In this document: positions 18,063 through 56,009 of the stretch, in pieces
How the letters are laid out: each line of letters starts with the position of its first letter
Numbering within the stretch: the first letter of the stretch is position 1
Assembly (NCBI GenBank): GCA_025351185.1
Contig: JANXWJ010000094.1
Coordinates: 5,172-69,171 of the forward strand
Direction: 5' to 3'
DNA length: 64,000 bases
Source: Candidatus Nanopelagicales bacterium
Lineage (GTDB): Bacteria > Actinomycetota > Actinomycetes > S36-B12 > CAIYMF01
Position numbers and translations under genes: made by a program
Notes under the pieces: model-generated
Databases searched by the model: none
Seen by the model: only the letters and a program-made list of their open reading frames with translations
What the model was told of the DNA's origin: nothing

Positions 18063-19241
18063 TCAGCTCCCGGTGGTGAGCTCGGCCACCGCCGCGAGCA
18101 GCGCTGCCACATCGTCGGACGTCGTGTAACGCACGACTCCAGCACGGACGAGACCACCGCTGTCGCGGAGGCCGAGAGCGTCGACGAGCTCGCACGCGTA
18201 GTTGTCACCGTGCCACACCGCGATCCGACGCGACGCGAGATGGTGGTCGACCTGCTCCGGGGAGTGGCCCGCGACGGTGAACACCACGGTCGGCGCGCGA
18301 TCCGGTGTCACGGAAGGCCCGTGGATCGTGACGCCCGGAATCTCGTGCAGCCCTTCCTGAAGCAGCGCGAGGAGACGCGTCTCACGCTCGGCCTCGTCTG
18401 CGATCGAGGTCGAGAGCATGTACTCCGCCGCAGCCGTGACACCAGCGAGCAGCTCGATCTGGGTCGTGCCCGTCTCCCAGCGCAGCGGGCCGGCGTAGTC
18501 GGCCGGCCGCACGCGGTAGGGCTCGATCTCCCCGAGCAGCCCGTTGCGCACGGCGAGGACGCCCGCGTGCGGGCCGTACCACTTGTAGGGCGAGGTCGAG
18601 AGCACGTCGACGTCGAGGGCCGAGGCGCTGGTCGGCAGGTGCGGCACCCGGGCGACACCGTCGACGAGGATCTTGGCGCCGTACTCGTGGGCGATCGCCG
18701 TGGCGCGCTCGAGGTCGGGGGCGTGGCCGGTGAGGTTGGAGGCGCCGGAGATGGCGACCCACCTGGTGCGTCCGTCGGCACACAGACCCTTGAGCGGCTC
18801 GACGTCGAGCGTGCCGTCGACCGGGTCGACCTCGAGGAGCTCGACGGTCGCACCGACGTCGCGGGCCGCGAGGATCCAGGGCGACACGTTGGAGTCGTGG
18901 TCGAGCTGCGTGCAGACGATGCGGTCGCCAGGCTGCCAGTGCCGCGAGAGCGCCCTCGTGAACGAGAACATGAGGTTGGTGGTGCTCGGTCCGAAGACGA
19001 TCTCGTCGGCACTGGCGCCCACGAGCTCGGCGGTGGCCGCACGCGCGCGGTCGACTACGGCGACGCTCGCGATGCTCGCATCGAACAGGCCGCCGAGGTT
19101 GGCGGGAGCGGGCGAGCGCATGTAGTCGGCGATGGCATCGACACAGGTGTCGACAGGCAGCGTGCCTGCGGGGCCGTCGAAGCGGACCCACCCGTCGGAG
19201 AGCCCCGGGAAGCGCGAACGGACATTGTCAGTGGTGGCCAT
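18063..19241 (-). CDS. Cysteine desulfurase-like aminotransferase class V
   Basis: FDGPAGT, LDHDSNVSPW, VDGV, SPYKWYGPH (PLP lysine), ETGT. Confidence 0.9.
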   Translation of the reverse strand: MATTDNVRSRFPGLSDGWVRFDGPAGTLPVDTCVDAIADYMRSPAPANLGGLFDASIASVAVVDRARAATAELVGASADEIVFGPSTTNLMFSFTRALSRHWQPGDRIVCTQLDHDSNVSPWILAARDVGATVELLEVDPVDGTLDVEPLKGLCADGRTRWVAISGASNLTGHAPDLERATAIAHEYGAKILVDGVARVPHLPTSASALDVDVLSTSPYKWYGPHAGVLAVRNGLLGEIEPYRVRPADYAGPLRWETGTTQIELLAGVTAAAEYMLSTSIADEAERETRLLALLQEGLHEIPGVTIHGPSVTPDRAPTVVFTVAGHSPEQVDHHLASRRIAVWHGDNYACELVDALGLRDSGGLVRAGVVRYTTSDDVAALLAAVAELTTGS

Positions 19242-19299
19242 GACGCGATCCTGCCAGTCCGGTCCCGCACAGTCGATCAGCCCGGACCCCGACGGGCTC

Positions 19300-19326
19300 T
19301 TCAGGCCCCGCTCCGACCGGCCGATG
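19300..19326 (+). promoter_or_regulatory. sigma28/FliA-like promoter motif upstream of the GAF-EAL gene
   Basis: TTCA-N16-GCCGATG, 7 nt before the ATG at 19334. Confidence 0.5.
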
Positions 19327-19333
19327 GGACTCC

Positions 19334-20557
19334 ATGGCCCGCCGAACGCCGAGCTCCGTCGACCTTGGGGCCGAGCAGCAGATCAGCGACCTGCTGCGCA
19401 CCGCCAAGGATTCGCTGCGCCTCAGTGTCGCCTTCCTGAGCCGTCTCGACGGCGAGACCCAGCATCTCGAGGTCGTCGAGGCGAGCGGTCCGGCGGCACT
19501 GTTCTTCCGCGAGGGCGTCACGCAGAACCGGGACACGTCGTTCTGCCAGGCGATCCTCGACGGACGGCTGCCTGCCGTCATCCCGGACGTGGCGAAGAAC
19601 AAGGTCGCGATGTCGCTGCCGTCATCGCGCATCCCGCGCATCCGCAGCTATGTCTCGGTACCGGTAAGACTCTCGGACGGCAGCCTCTACGGCACGTTCT
19701 GCGCCGCCGGGCTGACCAGCGACCAGGGCCTCACGACACGTGACCATGCGCTCATGGAAGTGCTCGCCAAGGCCGCCGCACTCGTGCTCGAACCGGGTCT
19801 GCGAGTCCGGGAGCGGCGCGAGGCGATCGAGGCACGACTCCTCCCCCTCATGGACATCCATCGAGGCCCGGTCATCGTCTATCAGCCCATCGTCGATCTG
19901 ATGACGGGCCTGCGAGTGGGCGCGGAGGCGCTCAGCCGCTTTCCCGCCGAGTGGGGCATGACCCCTGATCTCTGCTTCGCCGAGGCGCACAGCGTCGGGC
20001 TGGGACACGAGCTCGAGATCCTGGCGCTGCGCCGCGCCGCCGAAGCGGTCGACGAGGTGAGCGGATACGTCGCCCTCAACGTCTCACCCGCGACCCTGAT
20101 ACGGGAGGACTGCCGCGCGCTGCTCGCGACCCTGCCGCTCGACCGGGTGCTGCTCGAGCTCTCGGAGCACGACCCGGTCGAGGACTACAACGGCCTGCTG
20201 GTAGCCCTGGACCCCATGCGCCGCAGCGGGATGCGGCTCGCGATCGATGACGTCGGCGCCGGGTTCTCCTCCTTGCGCCACATCGTGCTTACTCATCCCG
20301 ACGTGATCAAGCTCGACCGTTCCATCGTCGACGGTGTCAGCCGTGACGACGTCCTGTCGACGCTCGTCCGCTCGCTCGTCGCCTTTGCCGGCAGCGCCGG
20401 CGCGCGCGTGGTGGCAGAGGGCATCGAGACCCAGGACGATGCCGTCTGGCTCCGCGGTCTCGGCGTCGACTACGGGCAGGGCTGGTTCTTCGGACGCCCC
20501 GGCCCGATGTCGGACCTCCTCTCCGCATCGACGCCTGCGCACGTCCCTGCCCCCTGA
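19334..20557 (+). CDS. GAF-EAL c-di-GMP phosphodiesterase
   Basis: N-terminal GAF (SFCQAILDG...SYVSVPV..SDGSLYGTFCA); EAL domain with YQPIVDL, AEALSRF, DDVGAGFSSL, KLDRS, AEGIE, GQGWFF intact. Confidence 0.92.
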   Translation: MARRTPSSVDLGAEQQISDLLRTAKDSLRLSVAFLSRLDGETQHLEVVEASGPAALFFREGVTQNRDTSFCQAILDGRLPAVIPDVAKNKVAMSLPSSRIPRIRSYVSVPVRLSDGSLYGTFCAAGLTSDQGLTTRDHALMEVLAKAAALVLEPGLRVRERREAIEARLLPLMDIHRGPVIVYQPIVDLMTGLRVGAEALSRFPAEWGMTPDLCFAEAHSVGLGHELEILALRRAAEAVDEVSGYVALNVSPATLIREDCRALLATLPLDRVLLELSEHDPVEDYNGLLVALDPMRRSGMRLAIDDVGAGFSSLRHIVLTHPDVIKLDRSIVDGVSRDDVLSTLVRSLVAFAGSAGARVVAEGIETQDDAVWLRGLGVDYGQGWFFGRPGPMSDLLSASTPAHVPAP

Positions 20558-20610
20558 GGCACGTACGGCCCCGAATCGATGGCCGCCGCCATCACCGCAT
20601 TCGCAGTGCG

Positions 20611-20637
20611 CTCAGGACGTCGGGGCTGCGACCGATA
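20611..20637 (+). promoter_or_regulatory. sigma28/FliA-like promoter motif upstream of the NlpC/P60 remnant
   Basis: CTCA-N16-ACCGATA. Confidence 0.55.
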
Positions 20638-20693
20638 AACGGGTGAGCACCCTCGGCGCACGGACTCGCCCCGACCCACGTGTGGAGCGTCCG

Positions 20694-21020
20694 TTGTCCC
20701 TGTCCGAGATCTCGGCGCGTATCGCGCAGATCCAGTCGTTGGTGTCGCCGTCCTCGACCGCCGCGACGATGGCGACGACAACCTCCGGCACCGACTTCGC
20801 CAGCACCCTCGACGGTGCCCTGGGCACGTCGTCGGTCGGCGCCTCCCCCTCGGCATCGTCGACGACGGGCCCGTCTGCCAGCGTCCTGGCCGCCCTGCGC
20901 GGCCGCGCCACGACCGGCACGTCGACTCGTGCCGATGGTGACGACCTCGCCACGTGGGCCACGAAGTTCGTCGGGACGCCGTACGTCGCCGGCGGCCGCT
21001 CACCCTCGACCGGCTCGACC
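20694..21020 (+). pseudogene. Truncated NlpC/P60 cell-wall hydrolase of the type found in actinobacterial flagellar clusters
   Basis: TTG after GGAG; MSLSEISARIAQIQS...TDFASTL...ATWATKFVGTPYVAGGRSPSTG, then loss of homology just before the expected (F)DCSG catalytic motif (ggc tcgac suggests a 1-nt loss from ggc ttc gac). Confidence 0.75.
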
Positions 21021-21070
21021 GGAGCGAGCGGTGCGACGACAGCGAGTCCGGCTGAGCGGCCGCTGACGGG

Positions 21071-21541
21071 TCAGCGTCTCCAGGTGTTCTTGGTCGGCCC
21101 CGTGCCGGCGCGCTTCACCGGACGTTGTGCGTGGGTGGCCGACACCGGGTTCGGGATGAGCCGGCGCAGGACGTCGGGCAGCGCCTCCCAGTCCTCGCGC
21201 TCCAGCCACACGTGCGCGACTGCGTCGGCCCAGACGCGATCCGTGCGACAGCGCTCGGCGATGTCGTCTTCGTACTCGTCGGCATAGTCGCTCAGCAGGT
21301 CCTCGATCGGACCCGCGGCGACATACGCGCGATGCCGGTCGTCGGCCTGGGGGTCAAGGAGCATGGCGTCGAGGACCTCGATCGGCAGGTCACCGTCGCG
21401 CACCGCCGCATGGACCGCATCCCACGCCCACCAGTGGTCCCGGTCGGCGACCAGTCGGTCCTCAGCGCTCCCCTGGCTCAGCTCGTGCTGCCGTCGGTAG
21501 GAGCGCACGATCTCGGCCTCGTGGGCAGGGTCCCAGGTCAC
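21071..21541 (-). CDS. Uncharacterised protein, DUF6869-like
   Basis: WWAWDAV...YVAAGPIEDLL...IAERCRTD..WADAVAHVW pattern; GTG preceded by CATGAT-N6. Confidence 0.65.
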   Translation of the reverse strand: MTWDPAHEAEIVRSYRRQHELSQGSAEDRLVADRDHWWAWDAVHAAVRDGDLPIEVLDAMLLDPQADDRHRAYVAAGPIEDLLSDYADEYEDDIAERCRTDRVWADAVAHVWLEREDWEALPDVLRRLIPNPVSATHAQRPVKRAGTGPTKNTWRR

Positions 21542-21582
21542 AGCACGATCATGTCCGACCGTCGGCCTCGTCGTCTCCCACC

Positions 21583-21627
21583 ACCGATAGCGTCTTCGCA
21601 GGCTATAGCCCTGCGGTGACGCTATCG
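21583..21627. repeat. Palindromic REP-like element, family B copy 1
   Basis: accgatagcgtc...gacgctatcg; 38/45 identical to 49401-49444. Confidence 0.75.
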
Positions 21628-21760
21628 ATGACGTCAGCGGCCCGACGTCCGCCGGACGTGGGACGACCCCGGTGCTTCCGTCCGGGGGAGGAACAGGAGG
21701 CATCGGGGCCGTCGTCTGGGGGTGGCCGAGGCGTCGGTCGAGTCCGTCGAGGACCCAAGA

Positions 21761-22157
21761 CTAGAACGGGCGGACGATCGAGATCGTTGCCCTTGCCAGA
21801 TCAACTGAGGTGCCGGTGAGCTCGATGGTGCCGAGCAGCTCGCGGACGGTGTCGACCATACACAGCAGGATGGGGGTGATCTCGGGCGTCAGCTCGAGGT
21901 GACCGTCGTGCAGCTTCGCTCAGGACGTTCTCCCCGACGTGGGCCACTGCCTCGAGCCGGTTGAACGCCGGGAAGCCGCTCGTGCCCTTGATCATGTGGA
22001 TCGTCCGGAAGATCGATGCGCGGCGCAGCCGGGAGTTCGGCTCCTTCTCCAGCGCCACGAAGGCTCGGTCGCGCTCATCGAAGTTCTCATAGCTCTCGAC
22101 CAGGAACCCCTGGGTGATGTCATCGAGTCCGTCGGCGAACACCGGGGCGTTGAGCAT
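21761..22157 (-). pseudogene. cheA: cheA remnant (Hpt/P1 domain only, frameshifted and truncated)
   Basis: DDITQGFLVESYENFDE.DR.FVALEKEP...SIFRTIHMIKGTSGF.AFNRLEAVAHVGENVLS. One extra base at about 21917; the other frame continues KLHDGHLELTPEITPILLCMVDTVRELLGTIELTG, then ends at TAG 21761. Confidence 0.88.
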
Positions 22158-22217
22158 GCACACACCTCGCTGCCGTCCGTGGCTCCCGGGGCAGCGCCGG
22201 GATCCTGCAGACGTCCC

Positions 22218-22243
22218 ATCGGTCGAGAGGCGACCCGGCTGAG
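22218..22243 (-). promoter_or_regulatory. sigma28/FliA-like promoter motif upstream of the cheA remnant
   Basis: Minus strand CTCA-N16-ACCGAT(G). Confidence 0.55.
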
Positions 22244-22349
22244 GGAAGCAGTCGGACCTGCGGACCCGTCCCGCTGCGACGCGCCAGATCATCCCAGCGT
22301 GCTGCAGGAGATCTAGGACGAGGCACGCGACCACAGCCTGCCTGCCGCG

Positions 22350-22997
22350 TGCGTCATCGTGTGCGGGTCGAGCCCGTCAATCATGACCGAGCTGCAGTCG
22401 GGGACCAAGCCGCTGTGCGGGCGCGCCCAGCTCGACATGACCGTGCAGCCCTTCGACTTCCGAACGGCCGCGCAGTGCTGGGACGCCGCCGACCCCGATC
22501 TCGCCTACCTGCTGCACACCGTGTTCGGCGGCACCGCCGGCTACCGGCCTCTCGTCGACGCCGCCCCGGCCAGTGCCGCCACCTTCGACACGTGGCTCGC
22601 CCGCAACGTCCTGGACCCCGCGCACGCTCCGTACGGGGAGAAGGACAACCTGCTCCACGAGGACAGCCACATCGGGGACACACAGCTCTACGACTCGATC
22701 CTGTCCTCGGTCGCGGGCGGCAACCACAGCATCGCCGACATCGGAGCTCCGCTGGCACGCACCCGCGACGCGCTGAGCCACCCGATCAGCATCCTCGTGG
22801 CGACCGGCTTCCTGCTCAAGGTCGACGACATGACGAACCTGCGCCGGTCGCTGTACTTCCTGGTGGACCCGATCGTGCGCTGCTCCGAGGTCGTCATCGA
22901 GCCCTACCGTCCCATGCTCGAGGAGGGCGCATCCGCCGATGTGGAAGCTGGCCGCGCCGACGTGCACCTGGTGTCCCTGGCCGACATGTACCGCTGA
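22350..22997 (+). pseudogene. Fragment of an AAA/ATPase_2 (DUF234-associated) ATP-binding protein; lacks the P-loop and is internally deleted
   Basis: CVIVCGSSPSIMTELQSGTKPLCGRAQLDMTVQPFDFR...VFGGTAGYR...LYDSILSSVAGG...YFLVDPIVR, then a jump to a terminal ADVHLVSLADMY. No Walker A. Confidence 0.7.
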
Positions 22998-23057
22998 GCG
23001 ACCCGGCCACACAGGCGGGTGAATGACCGTCGTGCCTGTGGCGTGGGAAATGCCGTA

Positions 23058-55404: not shown

Positions 55405-55463
55405 TCCAGCCCCCGTGTGATTCGCCCGGTCAAGGACGGCGGGCCGGCTGCCGATGAGGCTGC

Positions 55464-56009
55464 ATGACGACGACGGGGGTCCTTGCCGGTTGGTACACCG
55501 ATCCGCTCGAGCCAGCGACGACGCTGCGCTACTGGAGCGGTGCCGAGTGGACCGAGCACGTCGCACCGCGGGCGCAGGTCGCGCCACCCTCGACGGGCTA
55601 TGACCCGTCGGCGCCGATGCCCTACGCACGACCACCGTACGGACAGCCGCCCCACGGAGCCGCCGCTCCTGCCTGGGCGACGCACGGATCAGTGCCTCAC
55701 GGATCGGCACCCTACGGACCACCGAGCGGCCAGGGCGAGCATCCCTCCGACGCCCTGCACTGGATCGTGCCGACCGGACGCTCCTGGCAGACCATCGCGG
55801 CGGGCTATGTCGGGCTGGTCTCGTTGCTGCTCTTCCCCCTCGGCCCGGTCGCGATCGTCCTGGGCGTCCTGGGTCTGCGTGCCGCGTCGCGGCAGGGATC
55901 GCACGGACGCGGTCGGGCCATCTTCGGGATCGTCGCCGGCGTCATCGCCACCATCATCGGGATCGCGGTCCTCATCGACGTCCTCAACGGACCCGGCCAC
56001 CCCCGCTGA
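55464..56009 (+). CDS. DUF2510 + DUF4190 membrane protein
   Basis: AGWYTDP....LRYWSGAEWT; Pro-rich linker; two TM segments with GRGRAIFGI. Confidence 0.85.
   Translation: MTTTGVLAGWYTDPLEPATTLRYWSGAEWTEHVAPRAQVAPPSTGYDPSAPMPYARPPYGQPPHGAAAPAWATHGSVPHGSAPYGPPSGQGEHPSDALHWIVPTGRSWQTIAAGYVGLVSLLLFPLGPVAIVLGVLGLRAASRQGSHGRGRAIFGIVAGVIATIIGIAVLIDVLNGPGHPR

Follow-up and report, generated by a model that had tools for sequence, protein, structure and literature searches.

Three short boxes within 2.95 kb of the genome of a Candidatus Nanopelagicales bacterium are very probably sigma-28-type promoters, two of them marking the ends of a ~38 kb flagellar and chemotaxis deletion and the third heading an intact GAF-EAL gene. 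They lie in the window, the whole stretch of 64,000 nucleotides that was analysed, which belongs to an assembly of 3.88 Mb in 303 contigs with 95.7% completeness. As an instance of motility loss in a known regulatory system the locus is clear but unexceptional, and it represents no new kind of system. It also shows, with good resolution, how a flagellar regulon comes apart: a single deletion takes away the structural genes together with the cluster sigma factor, and the edge promoters, the flanking c-di-GMP phosphodiesterase gene and a second sigma-28 paralogue survive.

Sigma-28-type boxes in the window

Site 1, the GAF-EAL promoter, occupies 19300–19326 on the forward strand, with TTCA at 19300–19303, a 16-nt gap and GCCGATG at 19320–19326 (-35 TTCAGG, -10 GCCGATG, PWM score 20.9). 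The ATG of the 407-aa GAF-EAL ORF, at 19334, is only 7 nt past this box, so the GAF-EAL mRNA is predicted to be leaderless. Site 2, the former promoter of an NlpC/P60-SLT gene, spans 20611–20638 (+), with CTCA at 20611–20614, N16 and ACCGATA at 20631–20637; its -35 CTCAGG and -10 ACCGATAA give a PWM score of 19.2, and a GTG at 20643 lies 5 nt past the box. Site 3, the former promoter of a cheA operon, is on the reverse strand at 22216–22243 (CTCA 22243–22240, N16, ACCGATG 22223–22217; -35 CTCAGC, -10 ACCGATGG), and the ATG of the Hpt stub follows at 22158–22156 (-). Because its -35 reads TCAGC instead of TCARG, site 3 is a poorer fit to the genome-wide consensus. At both sites 2 and 3 the first -10 base is A, not G, and the PWM scores are below those of the best sites.

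Direct reading found all three boxes in place, with the 16-nt spacing and before the neighbouring genes, as the original prediction had it; the box of site 3 is indeed on the minus strand, but its end, given there as 22218, is at 22217, one base off. All three sites read YTCA-N16-RCCGAT, within the 15–17 nt spacing range. The published sigma-28 consensus has a -35 of xT(C/A)Ax and a -10 of GCCGA, of which the first two bases may vary, and the published search permits the A found at sites 2 and 3 (PMC13595943). Neither a sigma-70-like promoter nor a terminator-like site was found in a scan of 19100–22500. A fourth promoter of the same class, absent from the original prediction, lies at 55430–55457 (+), reads TCAAGG-N14-GCCGATGA with a score of 24.1, and precedes a DUF2510/DUF4190 membrane protein gene at 55464–56009 (+, ATG 55464).

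Counted over the two strands of the genome (3.88 Mb), YTCA-N16-RCCGATR has 35 matches, compared with ~16 expected from the two half-sites, and three of the 35 fall within the 2.95 kb described here, where 0.027 would be expected. Non-core DNA was defined as intergenic sequence together with the leading 120 nt of each ORF and makes up 26% of the genome. It contains 14 copies of TCARG-N15-CCGAT and 13 of TCARG-N16-CCGAT, where 17 other spacings average 3.8; genes were called by a rough GC3-based approximation, which makes these counts of 'non-coding' sites approximate. The motif enrichment proposed as a check is thus present, as a spacing-specific excess. The start of a long ORF lies 8–9 nt past CCGAT at seven strict-motif sites, those of GAF-EAL, DUF2510/DUF4190, cheW, two GGDEF-EAL genes, the C179 ORF and the C272 ORF. 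Since the motif stands so often 8–9 nt ahead of a start codon, many of these genes look leaderless.

The boxes are conserved in relatives

All three boxes are kept at orthologous positions in the flagellated congener G017, where they precede intact genes. The counterpart of site 1 is conserved in L009 and L010, and in G017 it reads TTCAAG-N-GTCGATGA-N-GTG. Site 2 counterparts precede intact genes in G017 (CTCAGG-N14-GCCGATGG-ATG) and in G022; the -10 of the sister genome L009/G005 is ACCGACGG, with a T-to-C change. Site 3 is near-identical to the G017 cheA promoter, CCCTCAGCC-N-GACCGATGGG, and the same CTCAGC/ACCGATG variant precedes cheA in congeners and flagellin genes in G017 and G025. Promoters of this class are also found before the motA, flhA and fliC operons of three congeners. 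Upstream of cheW, 18 of 20 congeners have cTTCAGG-N14-G(C/T)CGATG-N7-GTG, for which 0.0085 matches are expected per window searched; boxes, spacing and distance to the start are constant in this footprint and the spacer is variable. The genus consensus can be put at about cTCA(A/G)G-N14/15-GCCGATG.

GAF-EAL orthologues were found in 80 genomes, at 56–94% identity, and a sigma-28-like -10 box is present upstream of 52 of the 80, compared with 6.4 expected. The 80-orthologue pattern beginning T[CGA][CA]A[GAC] misses TCAGG, which makes its 30 of 80 an undercount; the controls were run with the identical pattern, so the enrichment at orthologues stands. At these 80 loci tblastn with the NlpC, FlgB, FliF, FliG, FlgD and CheA proteins of G017 returned no flagellar neighbours within the flank searched (up to 4 kb where the contig allowed), suggesting that the adjacency of GAF-EAL to flagellar genes is specific to this genus.

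The GAF-EAL gene itself (19334–20557, +) encodes a predicted c-di-GMP phosphodiesterase and is intact, as had been claimed for the c-di-GMP enzyme: the full ORF matches Pfam EAL at 144 bits and GAF_2 at 36 bits. Its translation shows the EAL, NVSP, ELSE, DDVGAG, KLD, EGIE and QG motifs, and we take these residues to be the catalytic signature of EAL enzymes.

A flagellar cluster deleted between two stubs

In flagellated congeners the locus is ordered GAF-EAL and NlpC/P60-SLT on one strand, then ~38 kb of flagellar and che genes, closed by cheA on the opposite strand. Either side of this 38 kb block is collinear between the window and G017, where the block holds FlgE, MotB, FlhB, FlhA, FlgK, FliD, flagellin, a second FliA/WhiG, CheB, CheW and CheA. 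G017 has flagellin (PF00669) and FlhA (PF00771) in the syntenic position, and no match to either was found in the 95.7% complete assembly of our genome; flagellin occurs in 6 of 27 congeners.

What remains of the two end genes was identified by tblastn with G017 proteins, which confirms that the NlpC/P60 and cheA pieces are remnants, as originally proposed. The NlpC/P60-SLT 5' stub (20643–21002, +) corresponds to residues 8–109 of the 380-aa G017 protein and stops at PYVAGGRS, directly before the catalytic Cys; its frame stays open to 21287, and that part has no homology. The stub ORF matches no Pfam or NCBIfam model, the NlpC/P60 catalytic domain being absent. The intact G017 orthologue scores 68 bits for NLPC_P60 and 74 bits for SLT_3, and the G022 orthologue also has the domain. 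The cheA 5' stub (21809–22158, -) retains Hpt/P1 only (Pfam Hpt, 25.9 bits): residues 1–81 are in frame, a frameshift follows near 21915–21919, and homology to the 750-residue G017 CheA extends to about residue 117. Its NCBIfam CheA match covers the N-terminus only, and at the nucleotide level it is 75–82% identical to cheA of G025, G017, G022, G021 and G004. Of the P1, dimerisation, HATPase and CheW-like domains of a CheA kinase it has the Hpt domain alone, in a broken frame, and judged by this architecture the cheA piece is a pseudogene stub. That the stubs are recent duplicates of intact genes was considered and rejected, as tblastn against the own genome finds the stubs alone.

The gap between the stubs is filled by a DUF6869 gene (21071–21703, -; Pfam DUF6869, 33.8 bits). 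We rejected it as an ancestral part of the locus, its 76% identical copies in G006 and G020 being non-syntenic. Other non-flagellated relatives (G022, G005/L009 and L010) have different deletion junctions at the same locus; the closest relative, G005/L009, has lost the whole segment corresponding to 20683–23057. The original reading of this patch as the relic of a FliA/WhiG motility regulon therefore holds; its picture of a slowly eroding island does not, as the remnants are the outer ends of an internally deleted ~38 kb cluster.

A retained WhiG2-type sigma factor and an RsiG-like protein

A FliA/WhiG-family sigma gene, the presence of which had been set as a further check, was found at C130:3001–3945. 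It scores 430 bits against the WhiG model NF004935 (cut-off 343), 284–285 bits against TIGR02479 and 389 bits against WhiG of S. venezuelae (6PFJ_A). It is of the WhiG2 type, with its gene beside rpsB. Each of 28 genomes has one WhiG of ~280 bits, and a second copy occurs only in the six flagellin-positive genomes, adjoining flagellin. Judging from this distribution, the cluster-borne sigma factor, of the WhiG1 type, is lost together with the deleted flagellar block. WhiG1 is known to accompany flagellar clusters and WhiG2 to accompany RsiG, and both read similar promoters (PMC13595943, PMC8325347).

The RsiG-like candidate, at C191:2922–3716, is the sole ORF of the genome with E(X)3S(X)2R(X)3Q(X)3D, the signature that an RsiG carries on two helices. 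Its first RsiG motif, ETQVSYWRRIIQARLD, is exact, and its second, EAELSAYRRELHHRID, has H replacing Q. The top PDB matches are RsiG chains, 6PFJ_T (weak, E 4e-5) and 7LQ2-4, and none of the NCBIfam models matches the protein.

The motif is found, too, before a type IV pilus cluster and a cheW-MCP-cheA operon, and before two GGDEF-EAL genes and the genes of cell-wall hydrolases. This gene set matches published WhiG2/RsiG regulons, whose predicted targets are DGC/PDE genes as the most widespread class, with che and type IV pilus genes besides (PMC13595943, PMC8325347). The claim that motility parts are disappearing accordingly applies to the flagellum, for which flagellin and FlhA are gone, and not to everything, for the pilus cluster and the second che operon remain. 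As a separate observation, the CheA dimerisation domain PF02895 has no match in the own genome, which does not mean that CheA is absent: the C287 kinase has the order Hpt-HATPase-CheW-REC with no detectable H-kinase_dim match.

Proposed mechanism and alternatives

We infer that the boxes are active promoters read by a sigma-28-family (FliA/WhiG) RNA polymerase holoenzyme, with transcription predicted to start ~7–9 nt past the box, often on the start codon. The ancestral locus would have run from GAF-EAL through NlpC/P60-SLT and flgB, across ~38 kb including a WhiG1-type sigma gene, to the oppositely oriented cheA, each operon being headed by a sigma-28-type promoter. An internal deletion then took everything from about codon 110 of NlpC/P60 through about codon 118 of cheA, so that the outermost promoters and 5' stubs now face each other over ~0.8 kb of unrelated DNA with DUF6869. 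GAF-EAL retained its promoter and coding sequence, and the genome retains WhiG2 and an RsiG-like, putatively c-di-GMP-dependent anti-sigma factor. At low c-di-GMP, RsiG would free WhiG, and free WhiG would transcribe GAF-EAL, the two GGDEF-EAL genes, the type IV pilus cluster, cheW-MCP-cheA and the cell-wall hydrolases; the phosphodiesterase may then feed back on c-di-GMP.

The possibility that the three boxes match by chance, the pattern being short and degenerate and the DNA rich in GC, has in its favour that the pattern was defined after the sites had been seen, that half of the loose genome-wide matches lie inside coding regions, and that CCGATG by itself is found 5138 times. The non-coding excess is nevertheless specific to the spacing, the boxes are kept at orthologous positions in congeners with diverged spacers, their clustering far exceeds expectation and a cognate sigma factor is present, and we regard coincidence as exceedingly improbable. 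It is also very unlikely that the scar is a misassembly in which the contig wrongly joins the two ends of a flagellar cluster still present in the genome. The assembly is indeed fragmented, and the junctions are read from it; against this, flagellin, FlhA and the second sigma factor are absent throughout, the cheA stub is frameshifted, the gap holds an unrelated gene and no clean join, and the independent assemblies of G022, G005/L009 and L010 collapsed differently at this locus.

The stubs could instead have been reused, with the cheA-stub promoter driving DUF6869 or the convergent promoters silencing each other or the insert. DUF6869 shares the strand of the cheA-stub promoter and lies downstream of it, ~100 nt beyond the stub end; the -35 and -10 of both stub promoters are intact and resemble those of functional genes, and the scanned interval offers no terminator-like site and no sigma-70-like promoter. 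Such reuse is unlikely, since the remaining promoter of G005/L009 carries the T-to-C change in its -10 and the segment loss there, with that change, speaks for neutrality; the GC3 of DUF6869, 0.81, is low for this genome. Returning to retention of edge promoters after a deletion, a fuller version is possible, if rather doubtful as a whole: the genus would form a natural series in which the regulon is rewired once flagella are lost. The cluster and WhiG1 would have been deleted several times independently, WhiG2 may still read the orphan promoters, GAF-EAL would be kept as a positive-feedback arm and DUF6869 may have captured the cheA-stub promoter. In that version the RsiG-WhiG2 switch may now govern only type IV pili and the pilus-type che genes.

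Relation to known systems

The closest parallel is the WhiG2-RsiG-(c-di-GMP) switch (Denis et al., 2026, PMC13595943; Schumacher et al., 2021, PMC8325347, in Rubrobacter), which likewise has sigma-28-type promoters before DGC/PDE, type IV pilus and che genes. Shared with those systems are also an implied feedback by a phosphodiesterase, the link of WhiG1 with the flagellar cluster and the occurrence of WhiG2 in every genome of the genus. In contrast to the published regulons, promoters here flank the scar of a flagellar cluster, many targets appear leaderless, the genus has both flagellated, two-sigma and non-flagellated, one-sigma states, and the system is predicted from sequence. In Actinoplanes missouriensis, too, flagellar, che and pilus operons are preceded by FliA promoters with a -35 of CTCA type and a -10 of GCCGA type (Jang et al., 2016; Hashiguchi et al.; both as relayed in PMC8325347 and PMC13595943). 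Actinoplanes possesses several paralogues of FliA and lacks RsiG, whereas this genome has a single WhiG2-type sigma factor, an RsiG-like protein and no flagella. PMC13689560 gives no Actinoplanes promoter consensus.

Flagella of Actinomycetota are vertically inherited with many losses (PMC13595943), and the locus resembles flagellar-cluster loss in general in its large internal deletion, its truncated or frameshifted end genes and the patchy occurrence of flagella within the genus. It differs in the survival of both terminal sigma-28 promoters, intact, in the scar, and in having at least three different junctions at one locus among related genomes. With flagellated and flagellum-free species as well as differing junctions, the genus could be used to estimate the rate of orphan-promoter decay and to learn whether WhiG1 targets pass to WhiG2. 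To the known cases of WhiG control over c-di-GMP enzymes, chemotaxis and type IV pili an uncultured lineage is added, for which the promoter consensus can be written out and many targets look leaderless.

Sigma-28-type promoters in the window and the genome

The window lies on contig C53 (C53:5172–69171) of a 3.88 Mb assembly with 303 contigs and 69.5% G+C. All three bipartite sigma-28-like boxes of the original prediction could be read in the sequence, with only the end coordinate of the third off by one base. Site 1, on the plus strand, has TTCA at 19300, a 16-nt spacer and GCCGATG at 19320–19326, and the ATG of a 407-aa ORF follows at 19334, 7 nt past the box. Site 2, also on the plus strand, has CTCA at 20611, the same spacing and ACCGATA at 20631–20637, with a GTG at 20643, 5 nt past the box. 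On the minus strand, site 3 has CTCA at 22243–22240, N16 and ACCGATG at 22223–22217. PWM scores are 20.9 for site 1 and 19.2 for site 2. Site 3, whose −35 reads TCAGC, does not fit strict TCARG, and no PWM score for it is among the matches listed. A fourth promoter of this class, absent from the original list, was found at 55430–55457 (plus strand; TCAAGG-N14-GCCGATGA), heading a DUF2510/DUF4190 membrane protein gene (55464–56009) whose ATG at 55464 is 6 nt past the box.

Genome-wide, YTCA-N16-RCCGATR has 35 matches on both strands, compared with ~16 expected from half-site counts, and three of these lie within 2.95 kb, where 0.027 would be expected. Because coding periodicity distorts such counts, spacings were compared instead in non-core DNA, the 26% of the genome that is intergenic or lies in the opening 120 nt of an ORF, with genes called crudely by GC3 and therefore only approximately. 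There, TCARG and CCGAT are separated by N15 in 14 cases and by N16 in 13, against a mean of 3.8 over 17 further spacings in the 8–26 range, an excess of ~19 sites. The motif is thus above background, as a spacing-specific excess. The N15 and N16 sites share a consensus of approximately cTCA(A/G)G-N14/15-GCCGATG, and at seven strict-motif sites a long ORF of high GC3 begins 8–9 nt past the T of CCGAT, which suggests leaderless mRNAs.

In G017, a flagellated congener of another species, all three boxes precede intact genes: TTCAAG-N-GTCGATGA-N-GTG for GAF-EAL, CTCAGG-N14-GCCGATGG-ATG for NlpC/P60 and CCCTCAGCC-N-GACCGATGGG for cheA. In G017 and two further congeners (G025 and G004), the motA, flhA and fliC operons are also preceded by this motif, and CTCAGC/ACCGATG, the variant at site 3, occurs at flagellin promoters too. 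Of 80 GAF-EAL orthologue loci from genomes of several orders, 52 have a [GAT][CT]CGAT[GA] box in the 100 nt before the start (6.4 expected), and at least 30 have a bipartite match, which is undercounted (2.0 expected). Acidimicrobiales orthologues have, in place of the sigma-28 box, a TAGTGT-type −10: a conserved CCTAGTGTCG... box (TAnnnT type) directly precedes a leaderless ATG (Acidimicrobiia loci L049, L051, L052, L054, L055, L058, L060, L061, L066 and L076). In Acidimicrobiales, GAF-EAL seems to be read by another sigma. An independent footprint comes from the region upstream of cheW, a predicted target on contig C287: cTTCAGG-N14-G(C/T)CGATG-N7-GTG is found in 18 of 20 congeners (0.0085 matches expected per upstream window), and boxes, spacing and start distance are conserved while the spacers vary.

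Remnants of a flagellar and chemotaxis cluster

The c-di-GMP enzyme gene behind site 1 is intact, as had been predicted: 19334–20557 (plus strand) encodes a GAF-EAL protein with a Pfam EAL score of 144 bits and the EAL-domain signature motifs in its translation. The ORF after site 2 had no family match in Pfam and NCBIfam searches, and the ORF after site 3 has an Hpt domain only, CheA models matching at their N-terminus alone. Neither flagellin (PF00669) nor FlhA (PF00771) was found in this assembly, rated 95.7% complete; flagellin is present in 6 of the 27 other species of the genus.

A DNA search with 20558–22358 found the cheA piece to be 75–82% identical to sequences in G025, G017, G022, G021 and G004, all congeners, with the NlpC piece matching the same contigs ~38 kb away and flagellin genes in between. 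Using BLAST, clean collinearity with G017 was seen on both sides: 13.0–20.7 kb of the window corresponds to G017:C1 425.6–432.8 kb, and 21.8–29.4 kb to 471.0–480.0 kb. The 38-kb interior in G017 codes for NlpC/P60+SLT_3 (380 aa), FlgE, MotB, FlhB, FlhA (826 bits), FlgK, FliD, flagellin, a second FliA/WhiG homologue, CheB, CheW and a 750-aa CheA. In the window, the NlpC/P60 remnant comprises residues 8–109 and stops at PYVAGGRS, just short of the catalytic Cys, at position 21002. The CheA remnant is in frame for residues 1–81, is frameshifted near 21915–21919, and retains homology to approximately residue 117 at position 21809. The collinearity and the truncated remnants together mark 20.6–22.25 kb as a deletion scar: the interior of the flagellar/che cluster is gone, and of the outermost gene on each side, both reading inward, the 5′ end remains. 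The proposed relic of a chemotaxis/flagellar regulon is borne out by the remnants and the congener cluster, and can now be described more precisely as the ends of one 38-kb deletion. Locally it is an ordinary deletion scar, though an unusually legible one.

Exactly in the deletion gap lies a DUF6869 gene (21071–21703, minus strand), with a GC3 of 0.81, below that of its neighbours. Two congeners have 76% identical copies at loci unrelated to this one (G006:C63 and G020:C8), and the gene may be mobile or of an immunity type. Beyond the scar, an ORF at 22359–22997 (plus strand) seems to have lost its 5′ end and resembles the C-terminal portion of a longer protein; it has no family match and has an 85% identical paralogue at C165:6055–6639, with DNA similarity extending upstream to the ORF start. 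In G017 this position is occupied by ~4.9 kb of other genes.

Sigma factor and candidate anti-sigma

A single FliA/WhiG-family sigma, the gene that the original prediction called for, is encoded at C130:3001–3945, adjoining rpsB. It scores 284 bits with TIGR02479, 430 bits with the NF004935 ‘WhiG’ model (cut-off 343) and 389 bits against S. venezuelae WhiG (PDB 6PFJ_A). The RsiG signature E(X)3S(X)2R(X)3Q(X)3D (PMC8325347) is found in only one ORF genome-wide, C191:2922–3716, where a second copy has H for Q. Its best PDB matches are the RsiG chains of 6PFJ/6PFV (E 4e-5, weak) and 7LQ2-4, and on this motif and weak match we consider it a candidate RsiG-like anti-sigma.

Each of the 28 genomes in the genus carries one WhiG scoring ~280 bits (in G022 only a partial match of 148 bits), and a second copy (179–208 bits) occurs beside flagellin in exactly the six flagellin-positive genomes. 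This pattern fits the published split between WhiG1, tied to flagellar clusters and without RsiG control, and WhiG2, controlled by RsiG and c-di-GMP, the promoters of the two being similar (PMC13595943). On this pattern, the window genome has lost WhiG1 along with the flagellar cluster and keeps WhiG2 and the RsiG-like protein. With the sigma gene, motif, congener synteny and stubs all pointing the same way, interpretation of the locus as a FliA/WhiG-controlled motility relic is supported.

Predicted regulon

Predicted targets are genes with a motif site upstream in this genome. They include two GGDEF-EAL genes (C246 and C285), a PilT gene (TIGR01420, 451 bits), a type IV pilus cluster on C185 (Roadblock/LC7, DUF4388, small GTPase, PilB with MshEN, PilT-like ATPase, PilC and two pilins), and a cheW-MCP-cheA(Hpt-HATPase-CheW-REC)-REC/GAF operon on C287. 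Others are another MCP, a CHAP hydrolase, a 1524-aa amidase/SpoIID protein, a collagen-repeat protein, a GT2 and the DUF2510/DUF4190 gene of the window. The highest motif scores genome-wide, 28.9 and 25.7 bits, belong to sites upstream of a pair of paralogous secreted proteins (~120–214 aa; C119:6783–8380), which could be fibre or pilus-like subunits; the one scanned (C119:6783–7427, 214 aa) had no Pfam or NCBIfam match.

The MshEN domain, which binds c-di-GMP, is carried by PilB at C185:3624–5300, and an HD_5 (HD-GYP-like) protein at C203:21639–23057 follows a weaker motif site; from these two, c-di-GMP may act on pili at several levels. The remaining CheA-like kinase (C287:6994–9240, minus strand) is an Hpt-HATPase-CheW-REC hybrid followed by a REC-GAF protein. 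No H-kinase_dim domain was detected in it, and the system looks closer to pilus-type or alternative chemosensory systems than to flagellar ones. The predicted regulon matches that of Rubrobacter, where type IV pili and DGC/PDE genes have been shown to be targets (PMC8325347), and the phylum-wide prediction, in which DGC/PDE genes are the most widespread target class, with che and pilus genes in addition (PMC13595943). The system is of a described kind, the WhiG/sigma-28 regulons of Actinomycetota.

Present in this genome are sigma-28-type promoters and their cognate sigma, together with a candidate anti-sigma, the deletion with its stubs, and an intact phosphodiesterase gene. In the proposed working, WhiG2 would read these promoters. 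Low c-di-GMP would free WhiG2 from RsiG, and free WhiG2 would switch on the pilus and che genes along with three c-di-GMP enzymes, of which GAF-EAL would act as positive feedback on the RsiG-WhiG2 switch. The two stub promoters are probably still firing into non-functional DNA. That of the cheA stub may read into the same-strand DUF6869 gene, no terminator-like site having been found between them.

Repeated loss in relatives

Scar structure varies among relatives. G022, which has no flagellin, keeps NlpC/P60-SLT intact together with its promoter and flgB, and also the first few codons of flgC, where a fusion to cheA at approximately codon 270 begins; this junction is an independent deletion. 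The closest relative, G005 (locus L009, ~92% nucleotide identity), keeps GAF-EAL, the second promoter with −10 = ACCGACGG and ~40 nt beyond, then jumps to the 3′ end of an acyl-CoA dehydrogenase gene, and the equivalent of 20683–23057 is missing. In L010, another GAF-EAL locus (80% protein identity), an aminotransferase gene directly follows the GAF-EAL gene. The GAF-EAL locus is a rearrangement hot spot.

The class-V aminotransferase gene, absent from the G017 locus, is upstream of GAF-EAL in the window (18063–19241, minus strand) and in L009, whereas in L010 and G022 it follows GAF-EAL or the scar.
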